Position numbers and translations under genes: made by a program
Shown here: positions 59,247 through 62,049 of the stretch, piece by piece
Layout of the letters: each line of letters opens with the position of its first letter
Numbering within the stretch: position 1 is the first letter of the stretch
Notes under the pieces: model-generated
Told to the model about the DNA's origin: nothing
What the model saw: only the letters and a program-made list of their open reading frames with translations
Databases searched by the model: none
Assembly (NCBI RefSeq): GCF_964194025.1
Contig: NC_134472.1
Coordinates: 18,228,001-18,292,000, forward strand
Origin: Convolutriloba macropyga
Lineage: Eukaryota
DNA length: 64,000 nt
Direction of reading: 5' to 3'

Positions 59247-60646
59247 CTAAAAATAGAAACAACATACGTGTGTATTATGGATAAGATAGTTATTTTTTAT
59301 ATATATATATATATATATAACAAACTAATTATTTGTGTTTTTATTTATAGTCGTATATATCTTTTAAAGTCATTATTGCTTTTAGACAGGAGAAATTGGA
59401 TTATCTCCATTTTCTTCTATTGCAGCATTGTTTTCATGTCTCTCATTTCTAATTGCACTATATAGTGGGTGCGGAATATGTGGATATAAATTAAAATGTG
59501 TTTCTTTCATTTCAGTTACTAAATGCTCAGCATCATCTGGCTGTTTTTCATTGGTTGGCTCATTTTTAAAGATAGAAGTCATAATAGAAGTGAACAGAAT
59601 ATTATAAGTGGCAAATAAGATGATTTTTCCAAAATTAACAGAAGCTCCAGTTATTTTATGTATTTGTAGGGCTTTTACAATTGTTACAACAATTTGAATA
59701 ATAAATTTCAAGAAAAGAAAAGCGGCAAAATAAATTCCACATTGCTCTAAGATAAATTGTGTATAACCGAACATTTCTATATAGCGGTTATCAAAGAAAT
59801 TAGGAGAAATAAAAGAGTCTAAGTAGACTGTTCTCATTGGATAGTTAAGATAAGTTCTATCCTCACTTTTAAAATTATCTTGAGAAACAACAAGTTCTTT
59901 AGAGAAAGTTTGTATAGCATCTTTCATTTCGTTATTGAATTTAATTCCGCGCCAAAATTTCTTTAATTCTTGATCAGTAAATAAATATATTTCATCACTA
60001 TCCTGGAATTTGTATTTAGTTAATCTTTGTGGAGCAATATTAGGCTCAAAAACAGAGGGTCCTTTGACTCTAGTTATACCCGGTGTTAATTCAACCCAGG
60101 AGTTATCATCTTCAATATCTAATTGAAATAAATTATCGTGTTTATCTACACATGATCGTTCTTCAGCGCTAGTGTATGTCTTTCTAGTAATTGGATCAAC
60201 GAAATGTATTTTATTTTGATACATTATTGGAATTCTATTATAACATTTCTCCATAATTTGTAAGGGTGAGAAATACTGTGGGCAATGATATAGCCATGCA
60301 ACATTATCATTAGTCTCTAAGAACATTGAGCGATTATTTGTTAGTAAGAATCCAGCCATACGTGGATTACTATGCGAATAGACTAAATTTGTTCTCTTTA
60401 TAGCACGTTCTAACTCACAATCGGTTTTTATCATTTGTAAATCTAAAAGCTGTAGTCTTCTTATATTAGTATATTCGTAATAGTCAAATTTCGTTCCCAT
60501 ATGGGCTTCATAATTTATTCCTGAGTGCAGATCAATATTTGGCTCTCCATTTGTATATGAAGTTCGTTTTACGAGCAATTTGCCTCTTGTGCTATTTACA
60601 TAAGTATTTTTTACAACATTTGGAATTGGTTTTTTTGCCTTTCCTG

Positions 60647-61237
60647 TATCCATATCGAATCCTCCTTCATAATGTATATATAATGAGCTATAAGGAGTAG
60701 GATAAACTATTTTGTTTGAGTCGCAAATTGACTGTGGATTATTATAAATCTGAAAAATGAAAGTATTTCGTGGCCCTTTAAATGGTTGCGCACGTCTAAT
60801 AACAGCTTCTGTTGATTCAGGTTCAGTTTCATATTCTCTTACTATATAATATTTTCTATCTATTTGTATCATTTTTACTGGAGCTGTGTGTAATTCTTCT
60901 ATTATACAATTTCTTCTATTAATTCTTCTATTATACAATTTCTTCTATTAATTCTTCTATTATACAATACCTATCCATATCGAATCCTCCTTCATAATGT
61001 ATATATAATGAGCTATAAGGAGTAGGATAAACTATTTTGTTTGAGTCGCAAATTGACTGTGGATTATTATAAATCTGAAAAATGAAAGTATTTCGTGGCC
61101 CTTTAAATGGTTGCGCACGTCTAATAACAGCTTCTGTTGATTCAGGTTCAGTTTCATATTCTCTTACTATATAATATTTTCTATCTATTTGTATCATTTT
61201 TACTGGAGCTGTGTGTAATTCTTCTATTATACAATTT
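60647..61237. repeat. 266-bp tandem duplication (60647-60912 / 60972-61237) with a 59-bp templated filler
   Basis: The two copies read identical at offset 325. The junction is built from 29-bp units aattcttctattatacaatttcttctatt starting at 60892, 60921 and 60950 (last one partial). Confidence 0.95.
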
Positions 61238-61965
61238 TCTCTATTTTCCCATGTATATGCATAAGGATCAGTTGATCCACTGTCACAGCCATTTTTGTTT
61301 AGGCTACAAGGCAGAGGAATATTATAGTGGTTATTTACCGTTCCATCTTCTAAATTTACTAGTAATTTAATATCTTGCATATATGTCTCGTAAGTATCGT
61401 GGTAGATCCATCCTGTTTCTGTGCACTCATTACTGTATTTATCACTAACGTCGCCCTTATTTATAACTGTTTGTTTCTTTACATTTTTTGTAAATGGAAC
61501 TTTGTTAGTGTTAATAGTCGCGGAGCCTGTTTTCTTAGCTTCGAGACATTGCTCGGCTGTTAATTTAATATCTGAGCTAATAGTTGCCTGTGTAGCGGAT
61601 AAACCACTATCGTCAAAAGTATCACAATACCACTTTAGGCGTTGATGTGTAGCTTTACACATAGTTGCTTCTAATTTAGTCTTATAATTGCGCTGCATAA
61701 TAGTAGCAGTTGCCTCACTTACTTTTATTTTCTCAGTATCGATATCGCATGGAGCTATTTTGTTTAATGAGTACATTTTATTAGAATCTATTTTAGAACA
61801 ATCAAAGTGTCCTACTTTTACTTTCTTTAGAGTATTTTTAAATTCGGAGTCTGCGTTGGCTCCATTTATTGAAAGTAGTGCGGAAATTATTAGAGGTACA
61901 ATTACAGGTACTCTCATATTGAAAGGGTAGAAGTTTGAACAAAGAAGAATTATAAATTTACTTAC

Positions 61966-62049
61966 TTCAATTATTTCGTCCAACACTTCTGGATCGGGCT
62001 CGGGGAACTGAAAGCTGGTTAGCTCAACTGTTTCTTGTTCTGAATTCAT
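61966..62049 (-). CDS. Accessory protein exon 1 / env leader (MNSEQETVELTSFQFPEPDPEVLDEIIE)
   Basis: 28 codons followed by a consensus donor GAA|GTAAGT, phase 0. Confidence 0.6.

Follow-up and report, generated by a model that had tools for sequence, protein, structure and literature searches.

We analyzed a 64,000-nucleotide stretch of the Convolutriloba macropyga genome (NC_134472.1, positions 18,228,001 to 18,292,000; the window), which consists of AT-rich animal DNA (GC, ∼0.33) with long introns. Toward its end lies the 3′ half of an env-bearing Ty3/gypsy element, which qualifies as an "errantivirus" under the operational definition of Chary & Hayashi, most likely inserted antisense in an intron of an RBPMS-like gene. 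The features of the element and a neighboring host exon are listed below in window coordinates; L001 and L002 are related loci from metagenome contigs, P0001 and P0493 are natural database proteins, and X5 is a run with contigs at the locus.

62642..64000, minus strand: C-terminal half of the integrase (end of the catalytic core, GPY/F module, and Pro-rich tail), running off the window; from Pfam, PDB, and L002.
62290..62640, minus strand: spacer between pol and env with a TATA-like box at 62330-62337, a candidate internal promoter; from a local match to the LTR box.
62052..62270, minus strand: 72-aa ORF directly 5′ of env; from the ORF list, no Pfam match.
60931..62049, minus strand: 5′ piece of env, with a 44-aa leader, a signal-like stretch, and the N-terminal ectodomain; PF24664 at 4.9e-11, 99.4% identical to P0001 residues 1-359.
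60647..61245, no strand assigned: internal duplication that breaks env in the window copy; from repeat analysis.
59382..60944, minus strand: 3′ piece of env, with the central helix, C-terminal ectodomain, membrane anchor, and tail; PF24664 at 1.4e-22, 98.6% identical to P0001 residues 269-780, class III fold in the model.
59385..59564, minus strand: C-terminal tail of env with LYPHI and a terminal PISPV, with YPx[LI] and P[ST]AP in homologs; from sequence.
59247..59262, minus strand: pyrimidine tract and AG resembling a splice acceptor, 27 nt before the ORF4 start codon; from sequence and an X5 contig break at 59246.
58624..59219, minus strand: ORF4, with an acidic N-terminal part, a small conserved core, and a coiled coil, and with a frameshift near 58980; from P0493, L001, and L002.
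58458..58466, minus strand: probable polypurine tract, placed by sequence at the position of the purine run before TG in L002.
58072..58457, minus strand: probable 3′ LTR, its 5′ edge inferred and its 3′ edge at 58072 ± 1 from a depth step and loose ends.
55913..56069, plus strand: host exon of an RBPMS/MEC-8-like RRM gene; PDB match to RBPMS at 7e-8, spliced to 45867-45929 in X5.

The original prediction had placed a chuvirus-like envelope glycoprotein at 59382..62049 and expected profile searches to return a chuvirus or class III family. The gene is present there as two minus-strand ORFs (60931-62058, 375 aa, and 59382-60944, 520 aa), both of which match the Pfam family Monjiviricetes_fusion (PF24664) above the curated cutoff. 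The reading frame is interrupted by a 274-nt direct repeat of 99% identity (60647-60920 and 60972-61245, at a spacing of 325 nt), and the duplication also holds a 29-nt tandem unit. An uninterrupted counterpart is provided by P0001, a natural 780-aa protein and the best of the 170 proteins obtained in the env homolog search. Counted from its second methionine (residue 45), P0001 is 736 aa long, in agreement with the protein of ∼736 aa that had been reconstructed from the window, and it contains every glycoprotein motif quoted in that reconstruction: FDC at position 82, CELER at 436, HC at 480, CYNRIPIMY at 494, FVDPITR at 508, and WVELTP at 543. The proposed arrangement of signal peptide, Cys-rich ectodomain, and C-terminal anchor is also borne out by P0001, with, by hydropathy, a signal-like hydrophobic stretch at 43-65, C-terminal membrane stretches at 657-692 and 701-719, and 14 ectodomain cysteines that are kept in 81 to 99% of the aligned env homologs with a residue at the respective site. 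No R-x-x-R motif (furin site) occurs in the env ectodomain.

The window copy is broken in both env and the downstream ORF4, and the 5′ half of the element lies outside the window. Related copies are numerous. At 90% identity, P0001 falls in a cluster of 56 members; of the 15 listed, 8 have a length of 780 aa and are 4 to 13 residues from P0001. Because the near-identical 780-aa members sit on contigs differing in size, the env family is taken to be young and multicopy. In runs X1 and X4, the depths of the contigs sum to ∼1,000 to 6,000 over the element versus 30 to 60 in unique flank bins, a figure that is no copy number and is read here as "many copies" only. Directly upstream of the gene, the 72-aa ORF (62052-62270, minus strand) stops three bases before the ATG of the env leader.

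To assign the glycoprotein to a structural class, the fold of P0001 was predicted with AF2 from a 112-row alignment of natural homologs (mean pLDDT, 76); this model replaced a single-sequence model with a pLDDT of 32. The predicted structure has a long beta-rich N-terminal half and a 48-residue central helix. In a Foldseek comparison with BFVD, a collection of predicted viral proteins, ranks 1 to 10 were all occupied by Monjiviricetes-type glycoproteins (E values, 1.8e-29 to 1.8e-22), among them those of a thrips virus (1.8e-29), Tacheng tick virus 4, chu-like and chu-related viruses, a xinmovirus, a qin-related virus, and Drosophila unispina virus 1. Chu-like glycoproteins held ranks 3, 4, 6, and 9, by family labels that are in part our presumption, and herpes gB first appeared at rank 21. 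Among PDB structures, the top matches of the model were herpesvirus gB (E value, 6e-11), with a VIA Z of 11.4 and an rmsd of 12.3 Å over 420 aligned residues, compared with a Z of 6.7 for rhabdovirus G; sequence and profile searches of the PDB with env found nothing. TM-scores to all structures were ≤0.41 with rmsd values above 10 Å, as expected for a flexible, elongated fold, and do not amount to a tight match.

The Foldseek and PDB matches, to Monjiviricetes G and then to herpes gB, place env, as modeled, among the class III, gB-type fusogens, in the broad family that also includes chuvirus G. The prediction of a chuvirus glycoprotein rather than one of the baculovirus F type was therefore correct as to class: PF24664 matched 23/23 homologs in the full-length env alignment, and an F-protein family matched 0/23. 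The label "chuvirus" is nevertheless too specific, since several Monjiviricetes groups are about equally distant from the model, with the best chu-, xinmo-, and qin-like matches tied at 12 to 15% identity. Env shares the class III fold and the cysteine framework with Monjiviricetes G (chu-, xinmo-, and qin-like) and herpes gB and differs from them in being only 8 to 17% identical, encoded by a retroelement, and equipped with late domain-like motifs on its tail. The env family is itself deep, spanning 20 to 99% identity and 2,360 representatives at an E value of ≤0.001.

The carrier of env was classified from the window integrase and from a relative. The window integrase matches Integrase_p58_C (PF22938) at 8.4e-7, above the cutoff, and SH3_Tf2-1 (PF24626) and rve (PF00665) below it; GPY is found at residue 215 of the ORF, and PDB matches include foamy virus IN (1e-9) and Ty3 Gag-Pol (4e-4). 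An env profile search of metagenome contigs yielded six loci (L001 to L006). Env relatives were absent from viral contigs, from genome contigs, and, with a single-sequence query, from metagenome contigs. L002 is a near-complete, 13.2-kb element with gag, protease-RT-RNase H, integrase, env, further ORFs, a purine tract, an LTR, and a primer-binding site. Its Pfam matches follow the gypsy order: Retrotrans_gag, aspartyl protease, RVT_1, RT_RNaseH, Integrase_H2C2, rve, p58_C, and SH3_Tf2-1. The best PDB match of its RT is Ty3 (1.8e-34), followed by foamy virus (1e-25), with no BEL RT among the matches for comparison, and its integrase is 52% identical to that of the window over 317 aa. The domains specific to BEL/Pao elements are Peptidase_A17, DUF1759, DUF1758, and DUF5641. 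Full Pfam scans of the L002 gag, pol, and IN and of the window IN returned no BEL/Pao-specific family. Thus, judged by sequence from half an integrase and a relative at 40% env identity, the carrier is Ty3/gypsy and not BEL/Pao, as the original prediction had it. The gag and RT of the window copy lie outside the window; among the integrase homologs considered, which were up to 791 aa long, none supplied a full pol, and the pol analyzed is that of L002 only.

Three further observations concern this set of relatives. In L002, the pol frame changes at L002:5162-5204, between the RNase H/linker region and the integrase, either as a break in that copy or as a feature of the family. The database protein P0013 joins env sequence to integrase C-terminal sequence and is probably the product of a rearranged copy. 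The motif E[ED]GE[ILV], which presumably resembles an ARS2-binding motif, is found in several subfamilies ahead of the signal stretch of env, within the in-frame leader (N-terminal 60 aa of P0009, P0010, P0014, P0015, and P0019), and EEGEI is also found in one ORF4 of L002 (L002:11349-11369); the env leader of the window has no E[ED]GE[ILV].

The 3′ boundary of the element was located from contig ends. Run X5 has a loose end at 58072 with the sequence of a tRNA primer-binding site, the first 12 nt of which are those behind the L002 LTR. The LTR carries a TATA-like box (58402-58409), an initiator-like TCAGT (∼58378-58384), and AATAAA (58152-58157), and its end is not the usual CA; the second LTR and the target site duplication lie outside the window. 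The 3′ end of the LTR (58071-58099) contains an inverted repeat of 8 bp around a 13-nt loop. CG termini of the Troyka type, as described in the available part of PMC12440569, were considered and rejected because the loose ends assign the CG beside the LTR end to the flank. Nothing in the element points to the Kuafuorterviruses as characterized in the portion of PMC11673190 at hand. The box in the pol-env spacer aligns with the LTR box over a 20-column local match, which 5/1000 shuffles and 3/162 control windows equaled in score, and TGGGA motifs occur at 14.7/kb in the spacer versus 1.4/kb window-wide. An internal promoter in the spacer is possible on these sequence statistics, which make it a lead with weak support. 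TGGGA clusters together with a similar TATA-like box are also present in the LTR (58400-58520, minus strand), as in the spacer at 62290-62640.

The RBPMS-like host exon at 55913-56069 is spliced in X5 to an exon ∼10 kb upstream (45867-45929, plus strand) across a 10-kb intron. The window does not include the next host exon, so an intronic insertion is probable; the element most likely lies antisense to the RBPMS-like gene in its next intron. One X4 contig matches the flank as far as 58072, beyond which 55 different letters follow, and it may, tentatively, represent the empty site. Elsewhere in the window, an additional host exon may be represented by a 303-aa low-complexity ORF at 20226-21137 (plus strand). 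A short repeat of very high copy number (depth above 27,000 in X1) lies at 57537-57750, ∼300 nt from the element end, and the long inverted repeats at 22144-22346 and 28117-28439 have the appearance of MITEs.

A further open reading frame, ORF4, separates env from the 3′ LTR and in the window is split between two frames. It is whole in the database as P0493, a natural protein of 198 aa with 28 members. An ORF with the same core occupies the same place once in L001 and twice in L002, so that a post-env ORF4 is present in 3/3 loci with enough DNA (L003 to L006 are too short 3′ of env). A profile built from the three L001/L002 ORFs finds only the window ORF4 among 672 ORFs, at an E value of 1e-6; its score for P0493 is 25.7 bits, compared with at most 11.1 for 2,000 shuffles. 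ORF4 has no Pfam match above the cutoff, only coiled coils in the PDB, and no usable match in the ESM Atlas. A 102-aa ORF, likewise with no Pfam match above the cutoff, lies between the two L002 paralogs (L002:10758-11066).

An acceptor-like AG precedes each of the two L002 ORF4 start codons, as it does that of the window. In X5, two contigs that overlap by 30 nt break exactly at the acceptor AG of the window ORF4 (59246), where the depth increases from 11.6 to 51.9. X5 has no record as an RNA run, yet it holds the spliced host exon junction. The acceptor is probably used; with one run and a contig from a diverged copy as the evidence, splicing of ORF4 is considered likely rather than established. 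We regard ORF4 as probably a genuine accessory gene expressed by splicing. Its most likely role, suggested by analogy, would be that of a coiled-coil adaptor controlling RNA export or expression of the element, a tentative assignment to which we give less than an even chance. The analogy is with CERV of Cer1 in Caenorhabditis elegans, which the available part of PMC10309623 describes as a spliced accessory protein from a gypsy 3′ ORF that acts in RNA export. CERV is a precedent in kind; according to the same part of that source, its ORF replaces env in Cer1, whereas ORF4 here follows env.

The candidate signals on the C-terminal part of env were assessed on the tails of 42 of 46 candidates, namely, homologs below 80% identity that were in the alignment, had the anchor covered, and had at least 25 tail residues. 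YPx[LI] was present in 24/42 tails (shuffle mean, 1.4; maximum, 6, in 2,000 shuffles) and P[ST]AP in 9/42 (shuffle mean, 0.2; maximum, 3, in 2,000 shuffles), figures whose independence the shuffle test overstates because the 42 tails are related. PPxY was not enriched (1/42). Counted over residues, YPx[LI] and P[ST]AP occurred 24 and 9 times, respectively, in the tails (4,561 residues) and 4 and 0 times in the ectodomains (39,546 residues). The tail of the window env has LYPHI, with PISPV instead of an exact P[ST]AP, and the L002 Gag has a single YPDI near its N terminus. YPx[LI] and P[ST]AP correspond to the late domains through which retroviral Gag binds ALIX and TSG101. On the sequence of the tails, Env rather than Gag may direct budding by recruiting ALIX and TSG101 through these motifs, a proposal that we regard as evenly balanced. 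Proline occupies the +1 position in 39 of the 70 tail YxxPhi motifs, and YPx[LI] also fits a plain YxxPhi sorting signal. If the second hydrophobic stretch (701-719) crosses the membrane, the tail would not be cytosolic and the late domain reading would fail.

Part of this architecture has precedent. Chary & Hayashi (eLife 2026, PMC13524379) identified 114 arthropod elements in which a gypsy pol is accompanied by a chuvirus-like, gB-type env and also reported gypsy elements with a gB-type env from across the animals. A chuvirus-like env carried by a gypsy element therefore falls within a class already published, and the novelty that the original prediction implied for this combination does not hold. 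Like the HSV/gB-type errantiviruses of that study, the element combines gag-pol-env order, a gypsy pol, and a class III, gB-like env with signal and anchor, has no conserved furin site, and occurs in multiple near-identical genomic copies. By eye, in the 73 of 229 supplementary rows available from PMC13524379, the window env is nearer the insect "C1" and mosquito BEL rows than the cnidarian, ctenophore, and tunicate rows. The 12-mer of the primer-binding site is absent from the table of 1,512 elements in that paper, the figure supplements and GitHub sequence files lying outside the comparison, and its text and supplements contain no acoel names. The available part of Dezordi 2020 (PMC7642597) defines Anakin as a BEL/Pao element with chuvirus-like G; the same broad glycoprotein family follows pol in an LTR element there as here, and the carrier differs, being gypsy-type in the window.

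The main text of PMC13524379 contains none of the terms "accessory," "splic," "ESCRT," "late domain," "internal promoter," or "cytoplasmic," and the open-access literature yielded no direct report of env-tail late domains or of post-env accessory ORFs in gypsy elements. The post-env ORF4 and the budding-like signals on the env tail thus appear to be undescribed. For the candidate internal promoter, a precedent in kind is given by Tor3b/4b of Oikopleura, whose env is expressed from an internal promoter according to the part of PMC4402516 at hand.

Taken together, the locus is very probably a defective copy from a recent expansion of a gypsy element, the intact relatives of which encode a gB-type fusogen that would serve cell-to-cell spread. 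By analogy with enveloped retroelements, LTR-driven RNA would give rise to Gag/Pol particles, and env would be made from a subgenomic RNA. The env model is a monomer; as in known class III fusogens, the protein would act as a trimer anchored in the membrane. Particles would take up env and enter neighboring, probably germline, cells by gB-like fusion. As proposed in the original prediction, the element may be infectious; in the window copy, env is broken. With less certainty, the tail motifs would recruit ALIX and TSG101 for budding, and a spliced RNA would supply the ORF4 accessory protein.

Two other origins of the env-integrase pair were weighed against this reading. The glycoprotein might be an endogenous viral fragment or a solo gene that merely adjoins a gypsy integrase; the 5′ LTR is not visible in the window, and the accessible part of Dezordi 2023 (PMC10084718) reports gypsy fragments often flanking chuviral G with no clear capture. 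We consider this extremely improbable, as the depth is uniformly high over IN, env, ORF4, and LTR and falls in the flank, and L002 has the identical order IN-env-ORF4-PPT-LTR-PBS. Moreover, seven contig sizes match exactly between the env homolog and integrase homolog lists, and this agreement is consistent with linkage of the two genes across subfamilies. That a gypsy lineage captured a chuvirus G separately and relatively recently would fit the placement of chu-like glycoproteins above herpes gB among the structural matches, and the available part of PMC7642597 reports that Pao elements have captured chuviral G. Such a capture is not indicated, because chuviruses do not stand out, the TM-scores are low, and the retroelement env family is deep. 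Identity to every viral G is only 12 to 17%, with xinmo- and qin-like G scoring equal to chu-like G, no env relative was found in viral contigs, and an ancient env-pol association is argued in PMC13524379. We therefore rate recent capture as improbable.

A different question is whether the element is more than a plain gag-pol-env errantivirus, with tail motifs that are ordinary AP-2/AP-3 tyrosine sorting signals and with ORF4 as a passenger with no regulatory function. Compatibility of YPx[LI] with YxxPhi, the restriction of P[ST]AP to 9/42 tails, and the lack of any ORF4 match beyond generic coiled coils in Pfam, PDB, or Atlas all suit this plain reading. The frequent proline at +1 and the co-occurrence of P[ST]AP argue against it, as do the retention of the ORF4 core and position across elements with only ∼37 to 40% env identity, its duplication in L002, and the acceptor-like AG before each start. 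On balance, the plain reading is plausible, at less than an even chance. At the other extreme, the element could represent a "complex" invertebrate gypsy lineage outside the published errantivirus set, with ESCRT recruited by the env tail and a spliced regulatory ORF4, in parallel to complex vertebrate retroviruses and independently reached; as a whole, this scenario is unlikely, though less so than recent capture.

As a defective copy of an expanded, env-bearing gypsy element, the locus adds one family to a published class, and the chuvirus-like env carries little weight alone. The entry mechanism of gB-type elements is called unknown in PMC13524379, and their release is not discussed there. 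The late domain-like motifs on the env tail offer a testable idea for how the capsids of gB-type elements gain a membrane. The conserved orphan gene after env, if real, would mean that regulation resembling that of complex retroviruses evolved in invertebrate gypsy elements.
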